From Rickettsiales bacterium (GTDB taxonomy: Bacteria; Pseudomonadota; Alphaproteobacteria; Rickettsiales; JALZUV01), in the NCBI GenBank assembly GCA_023301245.1, contig JALZUV010000098.1, forward strand, positions 1-37,824: 37,824 bases of DNA, read 5' to 3'. Each line of letters starts with the position of its first letter. Position 1 is the first letter of the stretch. The notes beneath the pieces were generated by a model, which saw nothing but the letters and a program-made list of their open reading frames with translations, did not search any database and was not told the origin of the DNA. The translations under genes were made by a program, and so were the position numbers. Of the stretch, positions 1 through 36,677 are shown piece after piece.

Positions 1-18
1 TTTGATTTGCAAATCAAA
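1..18. repeat. 18-bp perfect palindrome TTTGATTTGCAAATCAAA at the window edge, overlapping the ssb stop codon
   Basis: Read directly: positions 1-18 are self-complementary. The half-site TGATTTGCA (3-11) recurs at 6086-6094 in the cro/cI intergenic region. Confidence 0.6.
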
Positions 19-487
19 AGGGGATCTCATCGTCTAAATCGAATTTTTGGGCGGGGTCGGGGTCTTCTGACTTGGCTTTGCTTTCGCGGCCATATTCATG
101 CTCGCTCTCAGCCGCCGGCGGGCGATTGCTATCCCCTTTGCTATTGAGCAAAGTCAGACTGCCGTTAAATCCAGACAGCACAACCTCAGTTGTGTATTTA
201 TCATTACCGTCGCGGTCTTGCCATTTGCGCGTCTTGAGCTGTCCCTCGATATAGATCTTACTGCCCTTGTGAACATATCTCTCAATGATACCGACAAGCC
301 CCTCATTAAAGACCGCGATATTGTGCCAATCGGTCTTTTCTTTTTTCTCGCCGGTTGTTTTATCTTTCCAGCTCTCAGACGTCGCCAGGCTAAAATTAGC
401 AACCTTGCCGCCAGTGTTGAAACTGCGAATTTCTGGATCCTTACCGACATTGCCGATAAGGATCACTTTATTGACTGAACCTGCCAT
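14..487 (-). CDS. ssb: single-stranded DNA-binding protein
   Basis: 157-aa ORF. N-terminal OB-fold SSB pattern (VNKVILIGNVGKDPE...TDWHNIAVF...IYIEGQLKTRKW) and the canonical acidic C-terminal tail DDEIPF. ATG at 487. Confidence 0.93.
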   Translation of the reverse strand: MAGSVNKVILIGNVGKDPEIRSFNTGGKVANFSLATSESWKDKTTGEKKEKTDWHNIAVFNEGLVGIIERYVHKGSKIYIEGQLKTRKWQDRDGNDKYTTEVVLSGFNGSLTLLNSKGDSNRPPAAESEHEYGRESKAKSEDPDPAQKFDLDDEIPF

Positions 488-3553: not shown

Positions 3554-4626
3554 TATGACACCGCCTTTTCTGCAGCCATTAAGTCACGGAGCCAATCATT
3601 CCAATCTTTCACACCTTCCGGCGGATATTTCATTTCTAGCTTTCGGCCGCGCGCTTGGCCTTTTAGTTTTAAAAATGACGAGGCGAGCTGATTACGCGCC
3701 GTCTCGTTTTCATCATTCTGCGCGCAGATAAAAACTTCCTCAAATAGATCTAGCCACGGCATATTGCCGATATTGCCGAGCGTGCCGACATAAACCACGC
3801 GCCAATCTGGACAGGACAAAGCAACAGACAGCGCATCCTCTAACCCCTCACAAATCGCAAGCGTGTCCCATATGCCGGCCTCAGTTGCCTCGCGTATGGG
3901 CAAGCCGCTATGACCGCGCGAGACAGGCACAAACCCGCCCGCGAAACCGCCGAGCATTTTCTTAGGATTGCTGACAGTGTCTAGCTTACCGTCGCCGCTA
4001 TCATTTAAGAATGTGCGGTGTATAGCTTTTGGCTTTAAGTCACCGCCAATCATCAAGGCGCAAATCATAGGGTGTTCTGTGTAATCGCGCCCAATATAAA
4101 AGCGGCCCTTTGGATCAAACCGCAGCGCGCCAGGCTCTTTTTTTAATTGCCGAATATCAAGGCCGCGGTGCTCGAGCAAATAAGTCTCGGCAGGCGTGCC
4201 CAAAAGGCTCTTTTGCCCGCGCAGCCATAACCCTAGCGCCGTCTTGCGGCGGCTTTCCGGAGAGCGCGGCGCGTCAGTGCGCGTAGGCAAATCAGCAGGA
4301 ATAATATGATCAGCTGCAAGCCAATCATTCGCCCATTTTAACACCTTTGAAAATTCACGCGGCAGAGAAAACCCTTTTATATAAGCAATCAGCTGCAAGA
4401 TATTACCTGTATAATCACCGCTCATTTCGCACCAACCGCCAACCTTGGGACCGCCGACCATAATGTAAAAACTGCCAGGGTGACGATCGGGCCGCGTCGG
4501 ATTAATCGGGAAATAATAATTGCCCTGGCGAAACGCCGGCGGCGGGCACAAATCAGACGCGAGCTCGAGCGCGCGGCTTTTAAGGCTCGTAACAATAGCC
4601 TCTTTATCATAAGTAATGAGCGCCAC
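3553..4626 (-). CDS. Toprim-domain DNA primase with degenerate zinc-ribbon-like N-terminus
   Basis: 357 aa with a GTG start. The N-terminus FPINPTRPDRHPGSFYI...GGWCEMSGDYTGNILQLI follows the DnaG CHC2 pattern (CPFH..r.PSF.v...w.CFgCg..GD.i.l), but most metal ligands are replaced. The Toprim-like segment is LAICEGLEDALSV ... FICAQNDENE. Confidence 0.6.
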   Translation of the reverse strand: MALITYDKEAIVTSLKSRALELASDLCPPPAFRQGNYYFPINPTRPDRHPGSFYIMVGGPKVGGWCEMSGDYTGNILQLIAYIKGFSLPREFSKVLKWANDWLAADHIIPADLPTRTDAPRSPESRRKTALGLWLRGQKSLLGTPAETYLLEHRGLDIRQLKKEPGALRFDPKGRFYIGRDYTEHPMICALMIGGDLKPKAIHRTFLNDSGDGKLDTVSNPKKMLGGFAGGFVPVSRGHSGLPIREATEAGIWDTLAICEGLEDALSVALSCPDWRVVYVGTLGNIGNMPWLDLFEEVFICAQNDENETARNQLASSFLKLKGQARGRKLEMKYPPEGVKDWNDWLRDLMAAEKAVS

Positions 4627-6048: not shown

Positions 6049-6175
6049 AGCCGTTCTCTTTCCTTGACGGCTACCTTAAAAAGTGTGATTTGCATTAAAT
6101 TGCAACAACAAAATTCATTATTATTCTTGTTTTATGAAAGTGATATAAGTTTTGACGCCCTCTAAAAGCTTTTTT
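6049..6175. promoter_or_regulatory. divergent immunity control region (candidate operators and promoters)
   Basis: AT-rich spacer containing TGATTTGCA-ttaaat-TGCAACAACA (6086-6110). ATTGCAACA (6099-6107) recurs at 6861-6869, and AATGCAAA (reverse complement of 6089-6096) recurs at 6838-6845 downstream of cI. TTGACG lies at 6065-6070. Confidence 0.45.
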
Positions 6176-6793
6176 ATGGCTAAACATCGTATCGAATACT
6201 GGCGCAAGAAGCGCGACTTAACACAAGTCCAGCTTGGCGAGCTAACCGGCAACTCTCAAAATGCTATCTGGCGGCTTGAGACTGATAAGATGGAGCTCAA
6301 ATCGCATCACCTTCCGGTCTTTGCGCGCGCCCTTGGCGTGCGGCCGATAGATATATTGCCGCTTGAGTTTCTTGAAGAAGATATGCGCAGCCATAAATTC
6401 AGCGAAACAGAAGCGCAAGAATACAGACCCTCTGTAAACTGCGATAATACAGGAAATAACACACTCTCATTAGTAGAAATGGCCGTTGGAGATAACCCAA
6501 ATCGGAACGCCTGGACATTACAGTCAGACGTTTTAGAAGATCAAGGCTATATAAAGGGCGATATTCTTATCACTGATATGAGCCAAAACGCTAAAGCCGG
6601 AGACATAGTTTGCGCTGAGCTATACGCTAACGGAACATCGGACACAGTTTTTCGGATTTTTCAGCCGCCATACTTACTTTCTGGATCTCAAAAACCTTTA
6701 TATCGCCAACCCATAATGTGCGATTATGCGCGCGTGAAAATCATTGCCACCGTTACTCAAATGATAAGGCTCAATCCAAGCGCCAAACTATGA
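6176..6793 (+). CDS. cI-like repressor: N-terminal XRE HTH plus C-terminal S24 (LexA/cI)-like domain
   Basis: The ATG at 6176 (MAKHRIEYWRKKRDLTQVQLGELTG...) is preferred over the track's TTG at 6152. The C-terminal KGDILITDMSQNAKAGDIVCAEL...TVFRIF aligns by eye with lambda cI [23 protein letters not shown]...FTFKKL. Confidence 0.8.
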   Translation: MAKHRIEYWRKKRDLTQVQLGELTGNSQNAIWRLETDKMELKSHHLPVFARALGVRPIDILPLEFLEEDMRSHKFSETEAQEYRPSVNCDNTGNNTLSLVEMAVGDNPNRNAWTLQSDVLEDQGYIKGDILITDMSQNAKAGDIVCAELYANGTSDTVFRIFQPPYLLSGSQKPLYRQPIMCDYARVKIIATVTQMIRLNPSAKL

Positions 6794-6990: not shown

Positions 6991-7158
6991 ATGCAGACTT
7001 TAACTGACGCTAAACTTAATAATAAACAAATGGCCGCCGCCAATCAAATTGATCGTGATTGGGCCGCGGCAATTGCGGCTGCAGAGAAACGGCTGTCAAA
7101 CTTAAAAGCAGATCGCGCCGCAGAAATACGCGCAGCCATCAACCGCTTCGCGGCTTAA
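6991..7158 (+). CDS. small Ala-rich helical ORF, 55 aa (below the track cutoff)
   Basis: ATG at 6991 preceded by AAAGGA. Translation by hand: MQTLTDAKLNNKQMAAANQIDRDWAAAIAAAEKRLSNLKADRAAEIRAAINRFAA, with TAA at 7156-7158. Confidence 0.35.
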   Translation: MQTLTDAKLNNKQMAAANQIDRDWAAAIAAAEKRLSNLKADRAAEIRAAINRFAA

Positions 7159-7175
7159 CCTCAACAAAACCGGAT

Positions 7176-7592
7176 ATGATTATGACAGATAAAACACAAA
7201 AAGACCCACGCGGCAGCACAGACGTTGATAGCTTTGTCGGAACAAAGCTACGCCAAAGACGCCTTGTGCTTGGAATGAGCCAGACAGCGCTTGGCGACAA
7301 GCTCGGCGTTACTTTTCAGCAAGTCCAAAAATATGAGCGCGGCCAAAACCGCCTTGGCGCGTCCCGCCTTTTCAATTGCTCGCAAATACTTGGCGTAAAA
7401 CCCGCCTATTTTTTCGACGGGCTTGACCCAGCCAGCACCGGAGCGCCTGAATATAGCGACCCCGCACGCACGCTTTCTCTAAGCGTGCCAGGCGCGAAAC
7501 TCATGCGGCAACTATCACACTTTACCAAGCCGCAACTCGAGAGCGTGCTAAACGTGACAACCGCGATTGAAGCCGCAACAGCGCGCGCCTGA
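7176..7592 (+). CDS. XRE-family HTH transcriptional regulator
   Basis: The internal ATG at 7176 (MIMTDKTQ...) is preferred over the Arg-rich TTG extension from 7059. The classic HTH_3 pattern is LRQRRLVLGMSQTALGDKLGVTFQQVQKYERGQNRLGASRL. Confidence 0.75.
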   Translation: MIMTDKTQKDPRGSTDVDSFVGTKLRQRRLVLGMSQTALGDKLGVTFQQVQKYERGQNRLGASRLFNCSQILGVKPAYFFDGLDPASTGAPEYSDPARTLSLSVPGAKLMRQLSHFTKPQLESVLNVTTAIEAATARA

Positions 7593-7902: not shown

Positions 7903-9312
7903 ATGCTACCCAAAAAAAGCTATTTACAGTTTAAACGCGCGGCGGACGGCACAGTCTTTGGCCGCTTCTCGCCCAGCCCTAAACTGCGCAAAATGGGATA
8001 TGGCCGCTTTAATATTTGCACTGGCGGGGATCCTTACAGCACAAAAGAATGGGCCGCGCGCGGCTTTAAATCCGCTCTACCCATCACAAAGCCTGGACAC
8101 TATGCCAGTATTGAGGATTGCCTTGATATTATGGACGAGGTTTTAAAAGTCATTGAGGCGCAGTCCCGCGCGGCCGAGCCCCTGGACGTCACAGCCGCCG
8201 CGCGAAAACCTAAACACCGCAGCGCCGCGCGCACGGCAAGCGCCCTCACAGTCAGATCACTATTTAATGACTATCTGCGTAGCCCTGAATTTTTAGACGA
8301 TTGCTCGAGCGCGACGCAAAGAGATTATCGCAACCGCTTGCACCATGTTGCTAACTATTTTGGCACGCGAGCGCCGGCTGATATCGACAGCCTTGACGTT
8401 TATGAAATGTATAAATCTATCTGCGCACACGGGAAACAACACGCCGCACATAGGCAAGTGGCCGTTATGCGCATCGCCTTTGGCTGGGGCCGCAAAAAGT
8501 CGCGCCGCTGGAAACCCTTTATACCTGATATCGACTTTAAGCTGGGACTACCAAAGCCCGCGCCGCGGATCCGCATCGCCACACCCGCCGAGCAAGCCGC
8601 CCTTATGCGCGCCGCAGATGATCCTTACTCAATTTATAAAGAGCTCGGCCGGAGCGGCCCCTTTCGCAAAGATAGCGGCAATGGCCGCAGCTATCCCGCG
8701 CAGCCAACTCACGCCATGCACTCGGTCGCAGATATGCTCACCCTTATGATATGGACCGCCATGCGCCCAACAGACGCGCTACTTGCCAATTGGGATTGGT
8801 GCTACACGCATAACCACACCCAAGACCCAGAGAGCCGGCGGCGCAGCGAAGGCCCAAGGCTTACATACAGCCCAAGTAAAACAGGCAAGAAACATAATAT
8901 CACCGTCGACATACCCATATTGCCGCCGCTGCAAAAACGCCTGGCAGAAATAAGAATGCGGCAGCTCGCAAATGATTGGCGAGGCCGCGGCCGTGTGCTG
9001 CTAACTGATACATATGGCAAGCCCTACGCCACAAGCAAAACAGGGAGCTCAACATTCTCGACTAATTTCTCAAAGGTGCGCAGCTTGGCCGCAGAGATAG
9101 AGCCGAGCGTCGCCACCTTGCACGCGCAGGATTACCGCGACACCGCCTTAACGCAGCTCGCGCGAGGCGGCGCAAGCCTCTTAGAGATACTTGCATTCAG
9201 CGCGCACTCTAGCCTAGACAGTCTTAAAAAGGTGATTGAACACTATATGCAAATCGACGGCGAATTTGCAGACCGTGCCGGCAAGAAACTTATGAAACAA
9301 ATGGGGTACTAA
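7903..9312 (+). CDS. int: tyrosine integrase
   Basis: 469 aa. Catalytic-type motifs are AMRPTDAL (Arg), HAQDYRDTA (H-x-x-R) and SAHSSLDSLKKVIEHY (His...Tyr). It is adjacent to the tRNA-derived att core. Confidence 0.85.
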   Translation: MLPKKSYLQFKRAADGTVFGRFSPSPKLRKMGYGRFNICTGGDPYSTKEWAARGFKSALPITKPGHYASIEDCLDIMDEVLKVIEAQSRAAEPLDVTAAARKPKHRSAARTASALTVRSLFNDYLRSPEFLDDCSSATQRDYRNRLHHVANYFGTRAPADIDSLDVYEMYKSICAHGKQHAAHRQVAVMRIAFGWGRKKSRRWKPFIPDIDFKLGLPKPAPRIRIATPAEQAALMRAADDPYSIYKELGRSGPFRKDSGNGRSYPAQPTHAMHSVADMLTLMIWTAMRPTDALLANWDWCYTHNHTQDPESRRRSEGPRLTYSPSKTGKKHNITVDIPILPPLQKRLAEIRMRQLANDWRGRGRVLLTDTYGKPYATSKTGSSTFSTNFSKVRSLAAEIEPSVATLHAQDYRDTALTQLARGGASLLEILAFSAHSSLDSLKKVIEHYMQIDGEFADRAGKKLMKQMGY

Positions 9313-11954: not shown

Positions 11955-14210
11955 TTAGCGGCGTAGTCCGTCACGCATATAAGTACCGTTGAACTTAATG
12001 TTGAAAATCGGGCGTTGCCCCTCATTGTCATAATCGAGCGCAACGAATGTATTGTGCCCAATAGCTGACGCAGGAATAGCATCAGTGAAAAACGCGGTGT
12101 CACCGACACCCGGCGCGCTGCCCGGGGAAATAACGCGGCGGCCCGCCGTTGACAAATCAACAGTAGCAAAAGCGTTATTGGTACTTGTGCGCAAGAAATA
12201 GCCCGCATTAGCCGTTGGGCCAGTGTAAGGACGCATGACATTAACCTCGATAGAGTCAATTAACTGAGGGCCGCCCAGAGGATGCAATCCATTCGTGACA
12301 GTTATAGGCACAAGAGGATAACGCATAGAAGACAAAGCCTCACCGCGGCGGCCATCATGTATCTCACCAAGAAAACCAGTTTGATTAAATAAATTCGACG
12401 TCAAATTTAAAGGGCCAGTTTGGTCAATAACTTCCATTCTGCCAATATCTATGCGCTCATGCTGCGGCACAGAAAGCAAATCACCGCTTGTAAAACCGCT
12501 AATAGAATTTGGCGTGATTTGCGTCACATCTATATACACATCAGGACCGCCGACCACGTCTTGATAAAAACGATTTACATAATAAGCAGGATAATCATTG
12601 TGCCAGAGTATGCCGCCCAATGTCATATGACGCACAAATGGCAGGCCTACCGTGCGAAGATCAGCAAGCGAGCATCTCAACCTACCACTAGGCTCAATCG
12701 TAAAGGCTTGAGTACGCGCAAGCCCCTCAAATAACGAAGCTGTATTAAATTCTTTGCCAAGGGTGACGTCGCGAATATCTAAATAAGGCGCGCCAGAAGT
12801 TGTTGCAAAATAAACAGTCGAAAGATGTGGGCGGCGGATATAAGCGCCGTCAATAGTGTATCTATCTAAAGCGCCAAGAATACGCATTGAGCCAATATCA
12901 GCGCCGCCCGTAAGCAGCACTTGCTTACAGCCAGACCCTTGCAGCGCAGCGCCAATAAAGCCGCCATCGACCTTCATTTCATCTAAGCCCTTATCAAACT
13001 CTACATCCTCCTGGATCTCGCAATCTTTGAGCGTCGTATTTTCACTAGAGAAACAATAAACGGACGACGGCGTTTTGACGTCCTGTAAATAAACAGTACG
13101 CGCCCCCCCCGTTGTAAGCCGCCCGTTGCGTGCCTTAGTCGCAAACCCGTCCGTCCACATCGGATTAGGCAAATACTCCAACCCGAGAATTTCAAGACGT
13201 TCTGTTTCGATAAATCTATCAACGCCGCGATCCAAAGACAGCACTTGCGGCGGCCCATTAGCTTCTGGTTTACCAGAAGGCGCGGGGCCGCGCGTACCTA
13301 TCTGCGGCCATTGCGGATCATATTTATACTGCAAGTTTTGTGTAAGCTTTAATTCCAAGCCGTTGATAGCCGCAATAGTTGCATATTCAAAATATCGCAT
13401 AATTTGCGGAGAACCGTTAAGCTGCATACACCAGCCAAAGACTGTGATACGGCCCCCAACTTTAAAATCGGCCATATCTGCAATATCTTGCATACCGATT
13501 GTATCGCCATCGGTGAACGCCAACAATCCGCCGCTATCTAGCCCGATTGGCAAACTACCCGTCGTTGTAGGGTCTTGATCTTGATAATGCCCCTCGAACA
13601 TCATACCAATGTTATTAACAACAGTTGTATCAGCGCCGTGCAAAGACGCTCTTAGGTTTATCCATTTTGCACCATATCCATTTAGCGAAACCAAGTTTCT
13701 AATATTACGAAACGTCCAAGGCCGATCAGAGCCGTAAATCGTCATAGGCTTAAAATTGACTTTGAGCGTTTCATTTCTACGGCCGTAATCACCCATAGCG
13801 CTAAGTGCGTCACTATCGTCATGCACAACAGCAACGGCCGCCGCGCGGCTGGCGGCGTCACCACCTAGCGCAGCCAGTTTGATTGCAGCAGAGCGCGCAC
13901 CTAGAGGATCAGGCGTGCCAACTACGCCAAATTGCTCAGGGCAGACCGTGCCATCGGCCGCCGCAACTATTAAGTATTTTAAATTACCAGCAGTTTCTAC
14001 ATCAAAGAAATTAGCATTATCAGCGACCCGTATATAATCAAATCCGCCCGCCTCAACATTACCTAAATCGGTTTGCGTTGACGCCAAAAACGCCGCTACG
14101 CTAATGAAGGCAGCGCCGACAATGCAATCTTTTAATTGCGCAACAGTTAGTTGGGCCGGAATGCTACCGCGGTAAATATCAAGTGTGTCTGTATCTTTTA
14201 TGCAGGACAT
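11955..14210 (-). CDS. tail fibre / tailspike distal (receptor-binding) subunit
   Basis: The start is trimmed to the ATG at 14210 (MSCIKDTD), with GGAGG 8 nt upstream, 2 nt after the upstream stop. This 751-aa protein directly follows the gp17-N-like adaptor gene and is the last structural gene. Confidence 0.55.
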   Translation of the reverse strand: MSCIKDTDTLDIYRGSIPAQLTVAQLKDCIVGAAFISVAAFLASTQTDLGNVEAGGFDYIRVADNANFFDVETAGNLKYLIVAAADGTVCPEQFGVVGTPDPLGARSAAIKLAALGGDAASRAAAVAVVHDDSDALSAMGDYGRRNETLKVNFKPMTIYGSDRPWTFRNIRNLVSLNGYGAKWINLRASLHGADTTVVNNIGMMFEGHYQDQDPTTTGSLPIGLDSGGLLAFTDGDTIGMQDIADMADFKVGGRITVFGWCMQLNGSPQIMRYFEYATIAAINGLELKLTQNLQYKYDPQWPQIGTRGPAPSGKPEANGPPQVLSLDRGVDRFIETERLEILGLEYLPNPMWTDGFATKARNGRLTTGGARTVYLQDVKTPSSVYCFSSENTTLKDCEIQEDVEFDKGLDEMKVDGGFIGAALQGSGCKQVLLTGGADIGSMRILGALDRYTIDGAYIRRPHLSTVYFATTSGAPYLDIRDVTLGKEFNTASLFEGLARTQAFTIEPSGRLRCSLADLRTVGLPFVRHMTLGGILWHNDYPAYYVNRFYQDVVGGPDVYIDVTQITPNSISGFTSGDLLSVPQHERIDIGRMEVIDQTGPLNLTSNLFNQTGFLGEIHDGRRGEALSSMRYPLVPITVTNGLHPLGGPQLIDSIEVNVMRPYTGPTANAGYFLRTSTNNAFATVDLSTAGRRVISPGSAPGVGDTAFFTDAIPASAIGHNTFVALDYDNEGQRPIFNIKFNGTYMRDGLRR

Positions 14211-29836: not shown

Positions 29837-30060
29837 GTTCTACCCCGCGTTAGGAGCGTATTTCGCGCAGCCAATGGACCGCCGCCGCTGGCGCCGCTAT
29901 CAACGCGCAAACCCAAAGGCTTGCCCCGCGTCAAAAGAGTTGAGCCACGGCCTTTGCCATCAAGCGCGTTTTTTGCGTCCTCGGCCACGCGTATGCGCGT
30001 CGCATCATCCGCCGTTGGCGGCGCGGGTACTTCTGGAACGTCAGGCGATAAATCGACCAT
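29833..30060 (-). CDS. hypothetical small protein
   Basis: 75 aa with an ATG at 30060 and an AGAGG RBS. It carries the repeated motif (S/N)TLLTRG. Confidence 0.4.
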   Translation of the reverse strand: MVDLSPDVPEVPAPPTADDATRIRVAEDAKNALDGKGRGSTLLTRGKPLGLRVDSGASGGGPLAARNTLLTRGRT

Positions 30061-30074
30061 AGGGAAACCTCTTG

Positions 30075-31634
30075 TTATAAAAGAATTTTAGGAGCTGAAT
30101 TTGAATGGCTCCCAAAATGTGACTTAGACGCCATGCGGACAGCGTCATGCAGGCGCTCAGGGGAATGAATGAAAAACATGCAGCCATATTGCAGCGCGTC
30201 GTGGACGTGCGAAAAATGGCCCTTGTCGGGCTTTTCTCCATAACGCGTGCCATCAGCGCCTTTGTATTCTTTGATTTTATATCCGGACTGAAAGCCCTCA
30301 CGCACCGTCATGCAATGATTATTGATCTGCAGACGCGGCACGCCGACATTGAGCTCATTTAAAAGCCGGCGCACAGCTTTAATGCGGGGGTCCAGATTAT
30401 TGCTGTAGCCAGGCAAAACCTTAATTTTGGCATGAGTTTGGAAAGTCATAATCCAGCGGGTCATATCGCCATTGCTTTCGCGGCCGCCCGATCGGTTACT
30501 TGCCGCAGGATCAATCACAGCAATCGCGGCGCGCCCAGGGTATTTCATAGCCAGCAAAGCCGCTACGCGCTCACCAAAGCTTGCCGCGTCAGTGAAGTCG
30601 CCGGCTTCCGTTACGATTTCGTCAAGTACGTTTAAATTACCAGAGAGCGTCGGCTCGAGCACAACAGCGGCCGCAGAGCCCCCGCCGTCAACGCCAATGA
30701 TGAGCGGCAAGGTGCCGTCGCCGGTCATAAGCCGCGAGGCGGTATGCAGATCATCAACGTAATCACCATAGACAGGCTTGCCCGATCGGGAATAGCCGAC
30801 GAGGTTTTCTATCTTGCGTTTGATTTCCAATGGATCACGCATCGTACTGGCGAGATATTTATAATATCCGCCCTCTGGCTTGGGTAGGTTTTTGAGGTTT
30901 TCAGCGTCCGGAGAGAAGCCAGACGGAAATTCTATGAAATGATCCGTGTTTAAATTGGTTTTAAGAGCTAGGCGGCGATAAAGCTCATTTGTATCATTAG
31001 GCGCGTTGAAGTCGCCCCATAGCTGCGTGAACATTCCGCGGCCTTCATCTGGCAAATCTTTGATATTCGGCCAGCGGCCGAGGCGCTGCGCGAAACCGTC
31101 AACAACTTTTTCTGGAAGGTGATCAGGCTCATATAGGTGAACGCAGGTTGTGCGCAGGCCCGCAATCATGGCCTCAATAGATTTATCGCCAACCGCCACA
31201 AAATGCCAAACCGTTTTGTATTGGCATTTTTTATCGCCCCAAAGGTAGGTGACTGTGACGTCCTCTCCCTTGCCACCCTTATACTCAACGCCCGGCGCAT
31301 CAGGCGGGATTAAATCACGGAAACTATCGAGCGCTTTGTTGTGGACGGTCTTATAGGTATCACAAACAACAGTTATCTTGCATTCCTTACGACCCGTGCT
31401 ATAGCGCACAGGTTGACGTTTTGTATTTACCATCCCTTTAAAATATGCCGTCGACGTTTTTGCGCAGCCAACGGGCCCCATTGCGAGCACGATTGGCTTT
31501 TCGCTCATAAGGTATTCTAGGTTTTTTGGGCCTGGACAGCTCCACCCGTCGCGCAGGACGGGCCCGAGCCCATTTTGCAGACCCGCCCTCGGGTCACTGG
31601 CGGCCGCCTCACGTTGTAAAAGCGCGGCGGTCAT
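30075..31634 (-). CDS. terL: terminase large subunit
   Basis: 519 aa. Walker A is LAMGPVGCAKTS, and there is an acidic nuclease-type C-terminal half. It lies upstream of the portal, with a strong G-rich RBS. Confidence 0.8.
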   Translation of the reverse strand: MTAALLQREAAASDPRAGLQNGLGPVLRDGWSCPGPKNLEYLMSEKPIVLAMGPVGCAKTSTAYFKGMVNTKRQPVRYSTGRKECKITVVCDTYKTVHNKALDSFRDLIPPDAPGVEYKGGKGEDVTVTYLWGDKKCQYKTVWHFVAVGDKSIEAMIAGLRTTCVHLYEPDHLPEKVVDGFAQRLGRWPNIKDLPDEGRGMFTQLWGDFNAPNDTNELYRRLALKTNLNTDHFIEFPSGFSPDAENLKNLPKPEGGYYKYLASTMRDPLEIKRKIENLVGYSRSGKPVYGDYVDDLHTASRLMTGDGTLPLIIGVDGGGSAAAVVLEPTLSGNLNVLDEIVTEAGDFTDAASFGERVAALLAMKYPGRAAIAVIDPAASNRSGGRESNGDMTRWIMTFQTHAKIKVLPGYSNNLDPRIKAVRRLLNELNVGVPRLQINNHCMTVREGFQSGYKIKEYKGADGTRYGEKPDKGHFSHVHDALQYGCMFFIHSPERLHDAVRMASKSHFGSHSNSAPKILL

Positions 31635-32330: not shown

Positions 32331-32912
32331 TTGTTTAATACCCTTGCCGAGTTGATTTGACCCGAGCTCATAGCACAGCTGCGCAGCCCCCTACGCCGCG
32401 CAGCAATTATTGCGGCCCTATCGGATAGCATTTTTTTGCAGCTTACTGACTTACCGAATAACTCACCGATATGAGCCGCTAAGTTATTGATATATATACC
32501 TTTTTGTTTTTGGGTAAGTAAGTAAGAGAGTAAGTTGAGTATCACCCTTACGCGCGCCCTCGCTCGCAAGACAAAAGCCTATAGGCGCGCTCCCTGACCC
32601 GCTGACTGACTGACCCGTCAAAAATTTTCAAAACCATCCTTAATTTGGGGTGAGGGGAGAAAACCGATAACCATCAACCGCTTAGCCCTAGCCCAATGGG
32701 TGTTAAAACGGGGGTAAAGGGGTCGAATTGAGAGTAAGTCAAACGGTAAGACAGTCAGCGCCGAGCTCTTACGCGCGCGCGATATCGCGCGCGACTATCA
32801 CGCGCGCGGGCGAGTGCGTATAAATTAAATTACATATTTGTATTTTATCGCTTGTAATTACCTTACAAATCTGTATGGTATTTATATCAACAACCCTAAC
32901 GGAGATTACCAA
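32331..32912. promoter_or_regulatory. 582-bp repeat-dense divergent control region between the late operon and the ArdC operon
   Basis: CTTAC-TGA-CTTAC at 32442-32454. (GTAA)3-GAGA-GTAA at 32514-32533. CTTACGCGCGC at 32547-32557 and 32768-32778. CTGACCCG-(CTGA)2-CTGACCCG at 32594-32617. A 20-bp perfect palindrome CGCGCGCGATATCGCGCGCG at 32774-32793. Confidence 0.7.
32852..32879 (+). promoter_or_regulatory. candidate sigma70-type promoter of the ArdC operon, with an inverted repeat over the -35
   Basis: TTGTAA (32852-32857) - 16 nt - TATGGT (32874-32879). The inverted repeat TTGTAA-ttacc-TTACAA spans 32852-32868. Confidence 0.4.
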
Positions 32913-33812
32913 ATGACCAAAACAGACCTATATCAGGACGTTACAGACCGCATTATTGCCCAAATGGAAAAGGGCGTATTACCCTGGGCACGGCCTTGGA
33001 GCGCAGACAAAGCGCCTTTCGACTTCCCAAACAACGCCGCAACAGGGAACCACTATAGCGGGATTAATATTCTATTGCTTTGGGACGCGCAGCTCGAGGG
33101 CGAGCATTCAACGCATAGCTGGCTTACATATAAGCAAGCGCAGAGCCTCGGCGGCAATGTGCGCAAGGGCGAGCGCGGCTCTACTGTCTGCTATGCCAGC
33201 ACATTTACACCCCAAAAAGAAAAGACCGCCGCCGCGCAGGAAGGCCGCGACGCGCGGGCGATTGGCTTCCTAAAGCGTTACACGGTCTTTAACGCTGACC
33301 AATGCGACGGCCTAGGCGATAAATTCACGCCTGCCGAGCCCATGCCAGAGCGGGAAATGATACCCGCTGCAGAGGCCGTGATTGCCGCAACGGGTGCGGA
33401 TTTTCGTCACGGCGGCAATAAAGCATTCTACAGCCCTTTTCATGACTTCATCCAGACGCCGCACCAACAAAAATTTGATGACCAGATAAATTATTACCGC
33501 ACGGCCTTTCATGAGCTCGGCCACTGGACAGGCCATAAGAGCCGCCTAGACCGCGATTTAAAAAACGGCTTTGGTTCTAAAGACTATGCGCGTGAAGAAT
33601 TGATAGCTGAAATGAGCGCCGCTTTTAGCTGCGCGCGGCTCGGCATTACGCCAACCGTCCGCCATGCTGACTATCTGGGGTCATGGCTTAAGGTTTTGAA
33701 AGAGGATAAGCGGGCGATATTTAAAGCCGCGTCTATGGCGTCTAAAGCTACAGCCTTTGTCATGCAAGACACGCCAAAGGACCACGCGCAGCCTCTACAG
33801 CAAGCCGCCTAG
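32913..33812 (+). CDS. ardC: ArdC-like antirestriction protein (ssDNA-binding N-domain plus zincin metalloprotease-like C-domain)
   Basis: ATG at 32913 (MTKTDLYQDVTDRIIAQMEKGVLPWARPWS...NHYSGINILLLW...) with an HExxH motif, FHELGHWTGH. The track's TTG start at 32838 was rejected. Confidence 0.85.
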   Translation: MTKTDLYQDVTDRIIAQMEKGVLPWARPWSADKAPFDFPNNAATGNHYSGINILLLWDAQLEGEHSTHSWLTYKQAQSLGGNVRKGERGSTVCYASTFTPQKEKTAAAQEGRDARAIGFLKRYTVFNADQCDGLGDKFTPAEPMPEREMIPAAEAVIAATGADFRHGGNKAFYSPFHDFIQTPHQQKFDDQINYYRTAFHELGHWTGHKSRLDRDLKNGFGSKDYAREELIAEMSAAFSCARLGITPTVRHADYLGSWLKVLKEDKRAIFKAASMASKATAFVMQDTPKDHAQPLQQAA

Positions 33813-33897
33813 AGCCTACCGCTTTGGCGTCGCCTGATTCAGGCGACGCTCTAGCCGTGGACTTAACCGCGATAACCTTAACGGAGATTACCAAATG
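33813..33897 (+). repeat. 85-bp intergenic cassette, copy B (hairpin 33827-33849 plus shared RBS/start)
   Basis: 81/85 identical to 35066-35150. It ends in TAACGGAGATTACCAAATG, which also precedes ardC (32897-32915). Confidence 0.9.
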
Positions 33898-34551
33898 ACG
33901 CACAGCAGCCAACATAGAGACGCAATTGCATATATTGAAACGCTCGAGCCTGAAAACATGACAGGCTGGATGTATAAAGAATTTGAAACTGTTAGCGGAC
34001 TTATAGAGGGGCAGACCACCCGCGACTATGTAAACAATATGAGCCCTAAAGATTTAGTTAGCTATATTTCACAAAACATTAATGAGCGGCCAATCTTTGC
34101 GGATGTATGGGACATCATGAGTGAGCTTTTACCAGATGCACTCAATCCTAAAAACTACATAGCTACCAAAACAGAGACAATGCAAGACGGGTGGAAATGG
34201 GAGCGCGTCACAGGCGCACAAGACATGAGCGCCGCTCAATTACTTAAAGTATTTAACACAAAAGGCCGCGGCGAGCTTTGCCTGATTTTTGACGAAGGCG
34301 AGACACCTGAATTTACTTTTCAAGAAATGGTAGCGCATATTTTAGAGGGTCTTGAAATTGGATTTCACCCAAATGAAACCAAACCCAAACCAATTGTTTA
34401 TGATTATTTTGTAACTATCACGGAGCACCGCAAGTACAGAATAACAGCGGAAAGCGAGCAAGACGCTATTAACAAAAGCGGCGACTATGCAAGAGACGCT
34501 AATCCAATTTCATATGATTATGACCCTGTAAAAGTGGAGCTTTGCAAATGA
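33895..34551 (+). CDS. acidic orphan protein (218 aa)
   Basis: The ORF has the shared RBS GGAG. It is lower in GC than its neighbours. My hand count gives roughly 37 D/E versus 21 K/R. Confidence 0.6.
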   Translation: MTHSSQHRDAIAYIETLEPENMTGWMYKEFETVSGLIEGQTTRDYVNNMSPKDLVSYISQNINERPIFADVWDIMSELLPDALNPKNYIATKTETMQDGWKWERVTGAQDMSAAQLLKVFNTKGRGELCLIFDEGETPEFTFQEMVAHILEGLEIGFHPNETKPKPIVYDYFVTITEHRKYRITAESEQDAINKSGDYARDANPISYDYDPVKVELCK

Positions 34552-35066
34552 CACACCCTTTCACACTGGACGATTGCAACGGCGAAAGCCTCGAGCTAAT
34601 CGCGCAGCTCTATGAAGCGGGCGAGCAAATTCAAAAAGACCACTCACGCGGCCTCTACTTTTCAAAGTCTGAATATAAGCTTGCAGGAATGCCCGCGCTA
34701 TATCGCGGCGCAGACGAATGCGCCATGTGGACGCTGTACCGTCTTAAATCACTCTCGAGCGCGCAAATGATAGAACACGGCCTTGACGTCATGGCCGCGC
34801 AGACTGAAATCCGCTGCGCGCCTATGCGCCGCGACCCAAATGATGACAGCTCTACAGCCTGTGACGTGCTCGAGGCCGAATTTTTTGACGTCTACACGGT
34901 TATGATAGACGCCAGCGGCGATACAATTGACGGCCCTACAGTCATAGCCCCCAAAGGTCACATGGATATAGACGTAAGCCTTAAGACAGAGCAAGCCGCC
35001 GCGCGCTATGCGCAAGGCTTACATGAGCTGACAGCGTGGCCGCTCGATTTTGGATTAATGCAATAA
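34548..35066 (+). CDS. acidic orphan protein (172 aa)
   Basis: The ATG at 34548 overlaps the upstream TGA (ATGA), with GGAG 9 nt upstream. My hand count gives roughly 28 D/E versus 13 K/R. Confidence 0.6.
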   Translation: MTHPFTLDDCNGESLELIAQLYEAGEQIQKDHSRGLYFSKSEYKLAGMPALYRGADECAMWTLYRLKSLSSAQMIEHGLDVMAAQTEIRCAPMRRDPNDDSSTACDVLEAEFFDVYTVMIDASGDTIDGPTVIAPKGHMDIDVSLKTEQAAARYAQGLHELTAWPLDFGLMQ

Positions 35067-35150
35067 GCCTACCGCTTTGGCGTCGCGTGACTCGCGCGAC
35101 GCTCTAGCCGTGGACTTAACCGCGATAACCTTAACGGAGATTACCAAATG
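35066..35150 (+). repeat. 85-bp intergenic cassette, copy C (hairpin 35080-35102 plus shared RBS/start)
   Basis: See copy B. The four differences all lie in the hairpin apex. Confidence 0.9.
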
Positions 35151-35504
35151 ACAACAACATTCACAGCGCCGCCATTGCGCAAGGCCGCCCGCAACGCTTT
35201 AAACCTGCCAACCCTAAACGGCATGGGCCGCCCCAAAGGCAAGCCGCCCACAAGCCGCCGCGCAGGCGCAAGTAAAACAGAACTGCGCGACGTGCTAGAG
35301 CATGGTTTTGCCGCTGCTAAAATCCCCTCTCTAATGGCCGCGCTATATCCTGATAGAGATTTTAAATCGCTAGACGCTGACCAGCTCTTTAATATGCTTT
35401 ATGCGGCGAGATGGTGTGACGCGTACAGCCGCGCGCCTAACGAATGGCGCGGCTTGATAACAACAAACACACAAGAGACGCAGGCGCAGCTTATAGCGGC
35501 TTAG
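35148..35504 (+). CDS. hypothetical basic protein with an AT-hook-like GRPKGKPP motif
   Basis: 118-aa ORF starting at the shared RBS/ATG of cassette C. Confidence 0.55.
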   Translation: MTTTFTAPPLRKAARNALNLPTLNGMGRPKGKPPTSRRAGASKTELRDVLEHGFAAAKIPSLMAALYPDRDFKSLDADQLFNMLYAARWCDAYSRAPNEWRGLITTNTQETQAQLIAA

Positions 35505-35595
35505 CGGTCGCGGGCGCGGCGAGATTACCAATCAACCACCGCGCCCACGCTGCAGCCCTTCACAGAGCCGCCTAGACCCTATAGAGAGAGACGCT

Positions 35596-35859
35596 ATGAC
35601 AGACAAGACCAAAACAATAGACATTACCCCCGCGCGATATAGAGAGCTCATTAAGATGATGTATGATGACGCGCCTATAACAGCTATATGCGCTGACCTT
35701 GGCATTGGCCGCCCCGCGCATTATGAATTTTTAGAGCGCGGCGTTTTGCGCAGCTCCATAGCCGAGCGCATAGAGACGAAAGCCGCGCAGAAAACGGCGC
35801 AGCTGACCTTGCGCGCCAAGCGGCTCACGCAAATTATAAAAGATATGAACACGGCATAG
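35596..35859 (+). CDS. small HTH DNA-binding protein (Aca-like position at the operon end)
   Basis: 87 aa. ITAICADLGIGRPAHYEFLERG fits a resolvase/HTH_7-like helix-turn-helix. It is the last gene of the plus-strand operon. Confidence 0.55.
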   Translation: MTDKTKTIDITPARYRELIKMMYDDAPITAICADLGIGRPAHYEFLERGVLRSSIAERIETKAAQKTAQLTLRAKRLTQIIKDMNTA

Positions 35860-35871
35860 GCCGCTAATTTA

Positions 35872-35936
35872 CGGCTAGAGCTTCGATGGCCGATTGCGGC
35901 CACGCGCCCGATCACCGGCTAGAGCTTCGATTGCCG
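35872..35936. repeat. two 21-nt direct repeats CGGCTAGAGCTTCGAT(G/T)GCCG (35872-35892, 35916-35936) in the convergent intergenic zone
   Basis: Read directly. The core CGGCTAGAGC also occurs inverted in both 85-bp cassettes (GCTCTAGCCG). Confidence 0.8.
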
Positions 35937-36032
35937 TTTTGCCTGCAATCAGATCCAGCGACATCAGCAGCGACGCCAACGCGCGCGGCGCTGCGCGATC
36001 GTCAAAGCCCTGCCAGACAGCCCCAAAAATTA

Positions 36033-36580: not shown

Positions 36581-36677
36581 TGTCTATCCTTGTTTAAGCG
36601 GTGCTCGCTGCGCGCATCCGCTGCGCGGTTACTCTTTCGCTCCGCCCTTATCGGCGCACCCGCTACGCGGGTACGCC

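Follow-up and report, generated by a model that had tools for sequence, protein, structure and literature searches.

Why should two orphan genes within a phage operon be bracketed by nearly identical copies of an intergenic sequence? The question is posed by the window, the whole 37,824-nucleotide stretch of DNA that we analysed, which is the circular ~37.9-kb genome of a temperate podovirus-like phage whose host is probably alphaproteobacterial. The two genes, ORF218 and ORF172, belong to an operon led by ardC (Pfam PF08401, 5e-41, and PF18818, 1e-54; phrog_7245, 7e-93), with all genes on the same strand and gaps of 82-91 nt (Table 1). Annotation of the whole window found no gene for a phage-encoded RNA polymerase, and the operon is presumably transcribed by the host RNA polymerase as one mRNA, a single transcript. 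The AT-rich region ahead of ardC contains the promoter-like elements TTGTAA (32852-32857) and TATGGT (32874-32879), with an inverted repeat TTGTAA/TTACAA spanning the putative promoter. Its sigma70-like score is the highest in the operon, 8.5 vs 7.0 in the cassettes, for a candidate that falls under the consensus-scan threshold. In the related loci described below, TTGAC(T/A) stands ahead of the operon's first gene only.

Table 1. Features of the ardC operon and its intergenic cassettes, in window coordinates.
Feature	Positions	Strand	Remarks
AT-rich region upstream of ardC	32820..32896	+	likely the operon's only promoter region
TIR copy 0, TAACGGAGATTACCAAATGAC, ahead of ardC	32897..32917	+	exact match
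ardC, anti-restriction protein, first gene of the operon	32913..33812	+	ArdcN and zincin metallopeptidase domains
Cassette copy 1	33813..33899	+	repeat and fold; covariance model 121 bits
Copy 1, hp1	stem 33826-33836 / 33840-33850, loop 33837-33839	+	
Copy 1, lower stem	33821-33823 / 33853-33855	+	extendable to ~21-22 bp, stop codon to 33866
Copy 1, hp2	33856-33860 / 33867-33871	+	
Copy 1, SD GGAG	33883-33886	+	ATG at 33895
ORF218, cargo gene 1	33895..34551	+	ORFan; acidic, pI 4.67, 42.3% GC
ORF172, cargo gene 2	34548..35066	+	ORFan; acidic, pI 4.49
Cassette copy 2	35066..35152	+	repeat and fold; covariance model 122 bits
Copy 2, hp1	stem 35079-35089 / 35093-35103	+	
Copy 2, hp2	35109-35113 / 35120-35124	+	SD 35136-35139, ATG 35148
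ORF118, basic protein, no assigned function	35148..35504	+	third gene with an identical TIR
Relic: decayed TIR and copy of the ardC 3' end	35521..35581	+	local alignment
ORF87, small basic protein, last gene of the operon	35596..35859	+	HTH-looking by eye, no family match

The two cassettes form a direct repeat of 87 nt with 95% identity (83/87) and a spacing of 1253, and both run from the upstream stop codon (TAG/TAA) through the downstream ATGAC. An earlier note on this DNA had reported 81 identical positions in 85; our repeat search confirmed this count and carried the match two bases on, to ATGAC. Each copy is ordered in the same way, with a long imperfect GC-rich hairpin (hp1) followed by a small hairpin (hp2), the SD GGAG, 8 nt and the ATG. 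Two samples and the Logan unitigs agree on the arrangement, which is not an assembly artefact, and the depth of the 57-mer common to both copies is about twice that of its flanks.

As first described, all four differences between the copies (33834 C>G, 33838 T>C, 33841 A>G and 33842 G>C, copy 1 to copy 2) lie in the apex of hp1, which reads GCGTCGCCTG-ATT-CAGGCGACGC in copy 1 and GCGTCGCGTG-ACT-CGCGCGACGC in copy 2. They leave 10/10 stem pairs intact: one C:G pair is swapped to G:C, one U:A becomes U:G, and one change is in the loop. The hairpin had been put at 10 bp. Those ten pairs stand, but the stem has 11 bp when the closing G:U is counted, with a 3-nt loop, and sits within an imperfect inverted repeat with 25-nt arms and ~21-22 pairs. 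This palindrome is confined to the 5'-most 55 nt of the cassette.

Four random substitutions in 85 nt would cluster inside 9 nt with P ~0.002. The probability that all pairs survive is 0.074 for four substitutions in the 9-nt apex and 0.013 for four anywhere in the 23-nt hairpin, modest values that were computed post hoc and rest on two full cassette copies, all that this genome has. Four differences in 9 nt beside 78 identical flanking positions could also have arisen in one complex mutational event, such as a template switch within a quasi-palindrome, for which no selection is required. A search of the rest of the genome for a donor of the variant apex gave no convincing match.

Both copies fold stably as RNA (copy 1, -32.4 kcal/mol, z = -4.9; copy 2, -31.2 kcal/mol, z = -3.7), and in both the SD is unpaired. 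Two folds compete, the long helix of 21-22 bp and the combination of hp1 with hp2, in which hp2 competes for the lower stem. In copy 1 hp1 is also a perfect DNA palindrome, whereas copy 2 has a T opposite G and keeps the pairing in RNA. Because the opposite strand would have a C-A mismatch in place of this U:G pair, the variation favours a structure in the sense-strand RNA.

The 3' part of the cassette is shared more widely. The 21-nt translation-initiation region (TIR) TAACGGAGATTACCAAATGAC, for which 0 occurrences are expected by chance, is present in exactly three copies, at 32897, 33879 and 35132, all on the + strand and each ending in a start codon. The earlier note was right that this string is reused ahead of ardC, but it had counted 22 nt where there are 21 (32897-32917). 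It was also right that three genes share one initiation region, although the exact copies are not the whole set: the TIR of ORF172, GGAGCTTTGCAAATGAC, is a diverged copy of the common one, and a decayed copy, GAGATTACCAA, lies at 35521-35531.

We then asked how far the element extends beyond this genome. The search of relatives that had been suggested gave a divided answer, as searching 167 related loci with the element by blastn-short produced chance-level matches only, but a covariance model identified a weak, positionally meaningful match in L005/L012 (in L005, at the equivalent position after ardC, 20.6 bits, E = 0.013 in 1.47 Mb). A DNA similarity search against 50,697 deposited phages gave no match, and a close relative of this phage was not found in INPHARED, IMG/VR or Logan; IMG/VR returned nothing, whether scanned for the exact patterns of two element parts or with the TerL and ORF218 proteins as seeds. 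In the Logan k-mer search the element and operon appeared only in two runs, both from one plant-metagenome study, and no RNA runs carried either sequence. Contigs encoding an identical ArdC revealed no variant context. Unitig depth in X1 was 10.9-12.8 over the cargo vs 13.8-15.1 in the flanks, with no difference in X2, in data consisting of unitigs with k = 31, a length that the 57-nt repeat exceeds; we treat the X1 dip as noise or GC bias.

At the level of layout, relatives are easier to recognize. Four other loci (L005/L012, L007, L026 and L042), with TerL ~30-40% identical to that of the window, have the same arrangement, in which a cassette operon runs divergently from the terminase genes (terS/terL) and the series of stop codon, hairpin, SD and start codon is found again downstream of ardC or in the corresponding operon. 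The cassette sequences are lineage-specific but internally homogeneous, and likeness within a genome with difference between lineages would follow from recombination among cassettes. In L007, L026 and L042 they separate unrelated genes, and the genes between cassettes are mutually unrelated. For example, in L007 an 85-nt repeat with 94% identity flanks a single 220-aa gene unrelated to ORF218, while L026 contains six hairpin cassettes and one TIR common to nine genes. The TIR is used three times in L005, and that of L042, GCTTTGAGGAAGG, three to four times. Strict TIR reuse occurs in three independent loci (the window, L026 and L165) of ~165 surveyed, which confines the trait to a subset; L005, L007 and L042 contain looser copies. 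By an eye count, the distance from the end of hp1 to the ATG is 43-51 nt in the window and in L005, L007, L026 and L042.

Base changes in the relatives also respect pairing. Between the window (CGUGG/CCGCG) and L005 (CGUGC/GCACG), hp2 has undergone a G:C to C:G and a U:G to U:A change, and in L007 a C:G pair of hp2 has become U:A. One-sided stem changes yield a G:U pair on the sense strand in 4/4 cases (the window, L026, L165 and L042). As judged from comparison of the sequences, these observations support the view that selection acts on the hairpin as an RNA fold of the + (sense) strand.

A palindrome might instead act in DNA, binding a dimeric regulator such as the product of ORF87 and giving each cassette a repressible promoter. 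There is precedent in p576, in which ardC and its neighbours have repeated operator motifs at their promoters and are repressed by a small regulator whose gene lies in the same region (PMC6294495), the operons of the window and, by inspection, of its relatives close with a small HTH-looking gene, and hp1 of copy 1 has the required symmetry. Nevertheless, we regard this reading as very improbable. The cassette gives no promoter signal: a consensus scan found none, and its best sigma70 match (7/12) is equalled by 65% of random 83-nt windows. The DNA symmetry is broken in copy 2 with RNA pairing intact, and in L042 hp1 differs wholly between cassettes of one genome while hp2 is conserved. In L026 the stem is kept (6-8 bp) and the loop (4-6 nt) and apex vary by indels, changing the half-site spacing by 2-4 bp; a constant stem with a variable loop and apex marks hp1 there as a hairpin rather than a fixed dimer operator.

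If the hairpin acts in RNA, does it end transcripts? The stem of hp1 is followed by TCTAGCC, and both the sequence and a terminator scan, which made no call, agree with the earlier statement that no T-run follows it. We rejected an intrinsic terminator in this genome on the lack of a U-tract and its absence from the terminator-scan list, and calling the element "not a terminator" was reasonable in the classical sense of the word, as there is neither a U-tract nor a cassette promoter to restart transcription. A milder possibility is a transcriptional attenuator like the T4 PeSL, with hp1 setting a falling gradient of expression that a phage antiterminator might override. In reporter assays, PeSL stem-loops lower expression to an extent comparable with a strong terminator (PMC2839356), and two relatives have T-run versions, L165 a canonical terminator (10 bp and T6) and L007 a hairpin followed by TTTT. 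Set against this, the hairpins of the window, L026 and L042 have no U-tract, and since the cassette is promoterless, efficient termination would silence ORF218, ORF172, ORF118 and ORF87. We consider attenuation distinctly unlikely for the window. The T-runs in L007 and L165 do suggest that the hairpin class may be partly transcriptional.

Alternatively, the hairpin could be cut. At a T7-type site, host RNase III would cleave the long hairpin, splitting the early mRNA and leaving a protective 3' hairpin. This proposal is a specific sub-case of the reading that we prefer, in which the cassette acts on mRNA, and it suits both the location between cistrons of an early-type operon with an anti-restriction gene at its head and the shape of the extended helix, whose ~21-22 pairs with small symmetric internal loops make roughly two helical turns. 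The first cassette of L042 is longer still, at ~24 pairs and -50 kcal/mol. Yet the hairpins of L026, L165 and L007 have 6-10 bp at the equivalent position, too short for RNase III, and hp2, the part with covariation support from L005, competes for the lower stem. Additionally, the window operon matches no Rfam family at E <= 5, nor does any of nine related loci match one. Cleavage by RNase III is conceivable, and on balance unlikely.

What, then, do the cassettes enclose? As the earlier note had observed, they flank two acidic ORFs of which the first is lower in GC (42.3% vs 53-55% in its neighbours), giving ORF218 a foreign look, and the start of ORF172 overlaps the ORF218 stop (ATGA). The same note had taken the pair for anti-defence cargo, which our searches leave unsupported. 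Neither has a Pfam, PHROG or PDB match, ORF218 matched only itself in a search of 5.8 billion proteins and gave seven weak matches in an exhaustive HMMER search, and single-sequence AF2 models of both are unusable (pLDDT 36 each).

The second cassette might simply be the scar of a recent insertion or duplication, with a hairpin that has no function beyond that of a spacer. An identity of 83/87 implies a recent common origin or gene conversion, there are two full copies only, ORF218 seems recently acquired (42% GC), and the clustered differences could stem from a single mutational event. We find this neutral account improbable in view of the relatives, which keep the layout of stop codon, two hairpins, SD and start codon at a TerL identity of just 30-40%, with compensatory stem changes and constant spacing. 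Moreover, the cassettes flank unrelated rather than duplicated genes; paralogy among the genes that follow them, which would mean tandem duplication, was not found. A trace of an older rearrangement does exist downstream of ORF118. Following the decayed TIR, the 37 nt at 35545-35581 are a copy of the 3' end of ardC with its TAG and the start of the cassette. The local alignment scores 40 vs a maximum of 29 in 2000 shuffles, the TIR relic has p ~2e-4, and the segment 35521-35581 is the relic of an earlier duplication of ardC bounded by TIR and cassette.

Arrays of promoterless, same-orientation ORFs separated by imperfect palindromic repeats superficially resemble integron cassette arrays, most clearly in L026, and ACTTAAC at 33861-33867 fits the RYYYAAC motif of a site-specific recombination site such as attC. 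This identification is almost certainly wrong. By inspection, no GTTRRRY lies at the 3' boundary, the palindrome is not element-wide, and the unit ends in an SD and a start codon. The only integrase in the window (7903-9312) is phage-type (phrog_1) and lies ~24 kb from the cassettes, and no integron integrase or attI is adjacent. We rejected an integron attC on motif and context.

Taken together, these results favour the interpretation that the repeat is an mRNA-level intercistronic expression cassette of the ardC operon that doubles as recombination homology, to which we assign a probability of roughly 0.6. The RNA-level element proposed in the earlier note thus gains support from pairing-preserving differences and from a layout that recurs in distant relatives, and its recombination scaffold from the unrelated genes between cassettes in L007, L026 and L042 and from the ardC relic. 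We suggest that one mRNA is made from the promoter upstream of ardC and that hp1 forms in the sense-strand RNA, marking the boundary of a segment. The hairpin would shield the upstream cistron from 3' exonucleases, serve as a point of processing or mild attenuation, or both, and RNA-level stabilisation or processing by the cassette is what we infer from its structure. Its 3' part would offer every gene, of any origin, the same accessible initiation region. With identical tracts of 57 nt and 21 nt in direct orientation, the cassette also constitutes recombination homology, through which unrelated genes could be inserted, duplicated, exchanged or deleted. Recombination of this kind presumably placed ORF218 and ORF172 at their present site.

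A broader proposal is possible, and we offer it tentatively. A lineage of temperate, mostly alphaproteobacterial podovirus-like phages may keep a "plug-and-play" platform for gene capture beside its packaging genes, in which cassettes insulate and equalise expression, entry-phase and anti-defence genes turn over and only the hairpin apex drifts. Such a platform would be a counterpart of the integron array that uses homologous recombination and is free of an integrase, and it might even release mini-circles like those of PeSLs.

Should the cassettes mark a hyperplastic entry-phase operon, they would be inexpensive sequence markers of accessory genes and of candidate counter-defence genes in phages that have not been cultured, with ORF218 and ORF172 among the candidates. 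In L026, DUF3560 and DUF7007 are among the genes lying between cassettes; elsewhere ardC is a neighbour. Cassette-mediated modular shuffling, documented so far in lytic T4-like myoviruses, would be extended to small temperate phages, in a promoter-less, RNA-level version. The units would also be natural, context-independent intercistronic parts. In practice, de Bruijn assemblies break right at the cassette because of its identical 57-nt tract (scaffold_491 and the Logan unitigs), which makes it easy for metagenome assembly to mis-join or truncate such operons.

Several known systems resemble parts of this arrangement. The early polycistronic mRNA of T7 is processed by RNase III at irregular intercistronic hairpins, the T7 early region begins with an anti-restriction gene, and the sites within its genome resemble each other. 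The window also has hairpins between cistrons, possibly of the same irregular kind, an operon led by an anti-restriction gene and similar copies within one genome, but there is no sequence relationship, and the hairpins of the relatives are much shorter at the equivalent position. GC-rich stem-loops that lack a U-tract, such as the REP sequence in malEFG and the puf hairpins of Rhodobacter, protect upstream mRNA and set differential expression. The window hairpin is likewise GC-rich, intercistronic and free of a U-tract, whereas those stabilisers come without a copy-pasted ribosome-binding region, and we know of no case in which they serve as boundaries for gene swapping in phages.

Other parallels concern repeats upstream of genes. 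The establishment genes of p576 have repeated promoter/operator units controlled by Reg576 and are expressed transiently after DNA entry (PMC6294495). Both systems have ardC and neighbouring entry-phase genes with repeated upstream units, but those of p576 combine promoters with heptamer operators and work on DNA, while the window cassette has no promoter and its variation points to RNA. The start-associated sequences (SAS) of Cluster K mycobacteriophages and their extended form, ESAS (Pope et al. 2011, PMC3203893), share with the window TIR an asymmetric, conserved, SD-containing sequence in one orientation just upstream of several starts, there of non-structural genes. Some of the SAS have an inverted repeat ahead of them, with a spacer that varies and a consensus that differs between sub-lineages, and in the window an inverted repeat is present at 2/3 exact TIR copies. 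Nevertheless, the Cluster K consensus, 5'-GGGATAGGAGCCC, is unrelated to TAACGGAGATTACCAA in the window, and the 17-bp imperfect inverted repeat of ESAS abuts SAS, whereas the window hairpin ends 33 nt before the SD. The variation in ESAS gave no support to RNA pairing, and a DNA-binding protein was favoured; that in the window supports sense-strand pairing.

The PeSLs of T4-type myoviruses, repeated units of a sigma70 promoter and a stem-loop (Arbiol et al. 2010, PMC2839356; Comeau et al. 2014, PMC4122927), differ in having a strong sigma70 promoter, of which this cassette has none, and in numbering ~50 per genome of a lytic 170-kb myovirus, compared to the 2-3 copies that a single operon of this temperate, podovirus-like ~38-kb phage contains. 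Mini-circles and PeSL-bounded indels have been shown experimentally for PeSLs. In design, however, the two are alike: both span the distance from an upstream stop codon to a downstream SD and start codon, both carry a stable stem-loop, both cluster in a variable region beside ORFans, and both have been proposed as the homology for modular shuffling.

Between positions 30000 and 37824, a repeat search returned a single dominant direct repeat, in which 33813-33899 matches 35066-35152 over 87 nt with 4 differences and a spacing of 1253 nt. The earlier note had held that these near-identical spacers (cassette copies 1 and 2) differ only at the apex of a hairpin and in a way that preserves it, and both observations stand. 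All four mismatches (33834, 33838, 33841 and 33842) lie in the apex of the first hairpin, hp1 (GCGTCGCCTG-ATT-CAGGCGACGC / GCGTCGCGTG-ACT-CGCGCGACGC), where 10/10 pairs are retained through a C:G to G:C swap, a U:A to U:G change and one loop change. Random substitution would cluster the four within 9 nt of 85 nt with P about 0.002, and would spare every hp1 pair with P = 0.074 if they were placed in the 9-nt apex or P = 0.013 if placed in the 23-nt hairpin, all three values being post hoc, computed with the data known and from one sequence pair. The repeat is not an artefact, because assemblies of two samples share the same arrangement and the 57-mer common to both copies has about double depth in Logan unitigs. 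This 57-mer (33843-33899) fragments assemblies and leaves flank order ambiguous at k = 31; both ends of scaffold_491, a metagenome scaffold of this phage, lie in it, and Logan unitigs break there too. The start of scaffold_491 (33843) and its end (about 33897) both fall within the repeat; the genome is thus circular, and it was exactly at this 57-mer that the assembler broke it.

The window is a complete small temperate phage. Besides the genes in the table, it has primase/helicase genes and encodes a T7-type portal, tail and internal virion proteins and an endolysin; no RNA polymerase gene was seen among its genes. Its TerL has few relatives, which in GTDB genomes are overwhelmingly from Alphaproteobacteria prophages. 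Divergent from terS/terL runs a plus-strand operon consisting of ardC, cassette 1, ORF218 overlapping ORF172, cassette 2, ORF118, a 91-nt spacer and ORF87. The two bracketed genes are indeed acidic (pI 4.67 and 4.49), and the first is lower in GC, as had been noticed (42.3% in ORF218 vs 53-55% in its neighbours). A search of 1.8 billion representative proteins gave ORF218 no more than seven relatives, all very weak, and a word-indexed protein search found none for ORF172; the putative anti-defence label of this cargo derives solely from its position beside ardC.

Features of the window, its cassettes and other ArdC loci
Feature	Location	Description	Basis
Integrase	7903-9312
HTH (cI-type) regulator genes	6152-6793 and 7059-7592
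TerL	30075-31634
hp1		11-bp stem, 3-nt loop, above 3-bp lower stem	RNA fold
hp2		5-bp second hairpin CGUGG-ACUUAA-CCGCG	RNA fold
Shine-Dalgarno sequence (SD)		unpaired GGAG, 8 nt ahead of ATG	RNA fold
Different structured leader	L124 3197-3283 and 4656-4741
Different structured leader	L125 4383-4429 and 5539-5586
Different structured leader	L127 5906-5955 and 7033-7083
Different structured leader	L146 5907-5969 and 7418-7480

Several other repeats surround this operon. At the ardC promoter, an operator-like inverted repeat, TTGTAA-ttacc-TTACAA (32852-32879), overlaps the probable -35 and spacer sequences. In the 580 nt of non-coding DNA that separate terS from this promoter region lie GC-rich palindromes, CGCGCGCGATATCGCGCGCG and then CACGCGCGCGG (32769-32812), a possible packaging, end or termination signal. 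In the convergent gap past ORF87, two 24-nt direct repeats, CGGCTAGAGCTTCGATGGCCGATT (35872-35939), are 92% identical and 44 nt apart, and their 5' part is complementary to the cassettes' CGACGCTCTAGCCGT (15 nt, 93%). Another repeated intergenic unit, GGGCG.AGCGAAA...GCGAGCACCGCTTAAA (about 62 nt, 80% identity), belongs to the minus-strand operon; its copies lie at 36581-36677 and where the two window ends join (window 1-26 plus 13925-14060 of locus L001), each ahead of a different gene. Beside one copy is a perfect palindrome of 34 nt, GATCCCCTTTTGATTTGCAAATCAAAAGGGGATC, and it is there that the window contig is cut.

Each cassette spans from the upstream gene's stop codon to the next gene's ATGAC. 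The sense-strand RNAs of copies 1 and 2 fold at -32.4 and -31.2 kcal/mol (z = -4.9 and -3.7) into two hairpins followed by an exposed SD. Folded as the minus strand, copy 2 has two fewer apex pairs; its U:G pair works in sense RNA only. The translation-initiation region (TIR) is indeed reused before ardC, in three exact copies of TAACGGAGATTACCAAATGAC (32897, 33879 and 35132; 0 expected by chance), although it measures 21 nt rather than 22 and the earlier end at 32918 was off by one. The likeness upstream of ardC reaches 33 nt in the repeat search, and a diverged copy, GGAGCTTTGCAAATGAC, precedes ORF172. The earlier view that the hairpin is not a terminator is reasonable: sequence inspection found no T-run at the cassette, and a terminator scan did not flag it. 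The best sigma70-like match within the cassette is 7/12, a score that 65% of random windows also reach; the top score falls in the AT-rich region ahead of ardC. Nothing in the operon matched Rfam. An integron attC site was also considered and rejected on both motifs and context.

Of the conservation in relatives that the earlier note had looked to, that of the exact sequence was not borne out in deposited phages, IMG/VR, Logan or the related loci; the architecture, unlike the sequence, recurs, and across the loci compared the genes enclosed by cassettes are unrelated to one another. In L007 (TerL 34% and ArdC 62% identical to the window), an 85-nt repeat with 94% identity brackets a lone 220-aa gene, unrelated to ORF218, straight after ardC, and its hp2 and TIR portion also stands ahead of ardC. 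L026, from an alphaproteobacterial MAG, has a nine-gene operon divergent from TerL with AACCAACGGAGAAnnGAGAyCATG before 9/9 genes; six spacers are hairpin cassettes of about 86 nt, TGA stop included, that vary mostly in the hp1 apex (stem 6-8 bp, loop 4-6 nt) and at one second spot, and the genes between them include DUF7007 and DUF3560. The first ORF of that operon (3586-3685, minus strand) encodes a 26-aa hydrophobic peptide, which may be a leader peptide, with a standard TIR and a TAA stop inside the next gene's TIR. After ardC in L042 (a Pseudolabrys MAG) come cassettes with a variable hp1, the first of about 24 pairs, a conserved hp2 (GGTGCC-GCCARU-GGCAYC) and the TIR GCTTTGAGGAAGG, of which one of four copies lies ahead of ardC. 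In L005, the same element as L012 (a Robiginitomaculum MAG contig), three genes share CAGACGAAAAGGAC...ACCAATG, and a covariance model of the two window copies found a full-length match in the spacer directly after ardC (20.6 bits, E = 0.013 in 1.47 Mb), with the window's two-hairpin layout and hp2 changes of G:C to C:G and U:G to U:A. A separate 25-36-nt C-rich repeat, GCCCCTCACCCCAACCCTCTCCCCA, occupies three intergenic sites of L005 (608-642, 4464-4499 and 6813-6837), one just past the ardC operon. Wherever hp2 is present, hp1 ends 43-51 nt before the ATG, as counted by eye in sequences of the window, L005, L007, L026 and L042. In L165 a canonical terminator (10-bp stem, 3-nt loop, T6) is fused to the TIR on both sides of ardC (677-747 and 1602-1671), its copies differing by U:G to C:G and one loop base, and a third gene has the same TIR.

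We interpret the element as an intercistronic cassette acting at the level of the mRNA. A neutral scar is contradicted by the conserved architecture and compensatory stem changes. One-sided stem changes give a sense-strand G:U in 4/4 cases (window, L026, L165 and L042; chance P about 0.06). A promoter/operator unit of the p576 kind is likewise contradicted: the cassette has no promoter, the copy 2 change is asymmetric, arm spacing varies in L026 and hp1 sequences differ within L042. Transcriptional attenuation fits L165 and L007, but it fits the window poorly because a U-tract and a downstream promoter are absent. As a sub-case of the mRNA-level reading, the hairpin may be an RNase III site: in longer context an alternative fold, competing with hp2, lengthens the lower stem to about 21-22 imperfect pairs reaching the stop codon (25-nt arms), although the short equivalent hairpins in relatives weaken this possibility. 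We infer that the hairpin acts on RNA; it would mark a segment boundary, as a 3' stabiliser, processing site or mild attenuator, and the 3' part would provide a standard, unstructured initiation region for the next gene.

Because 57 + 21 identical nt recur in direct orientation, the cassette would supply homology for gene gain, loss and exchange, and ORF218-ORF172 was presumably placed in the window by recombination at the cassettes. Such a role as recombination homology would explain why cassettes are homogeneous within a genome and divergent between lineages. The ORF118-ORF87 spacer carries a relic, a decayed TIR (GAGATTACCAA, 35521-35531; p about 2e-4) and, 14 nt further on, 37 nt that copy the last ardC codons, TAG and the first cassette bases (35545-35581; local alignment score 40, where 2000 shuffles scored at most 29). 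The simplest reading is a remnant of a former second ardC unit; unequal exchange among TIR or cassette copies would have created this unit, and its body would later have been deleted. Apex clustering of differences recurs in L026 and L165; the apex may be the sole unconstrained part of the cassette, or palindrome-specific mutation may act there.

Of about 165 loci, three independent ones (window, L026 and L165) show strict TIR reuse, and most ArdC loci, probably plasmids or ICEs, do not have the cassette trait. Four of the other ArdC loci (table), probably plasmid or ICE, have a different conserved structured leader, GTGACGGG...GCGAGAGAGGCTCGC...CCCGTC-GGAGA-ATG, ahead of ardC and again ahead of the next gene; it has no Rfam match. 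Among known systems, the closest is the promoter-early stem-loop (PeSL) cassette of T4-like phages, which resembles the window cassette in its boundaries, stem-loop, ORFan association and shuffling role, but differs in phage type and in having a promoter. For a copy-pasted initiation region with an upstream inverted repeat, the closest parallel is the (extended) start-associated sequences of Cluster K mycobacteriophages, for which the authors favoured DNA binding (PMC3203893).
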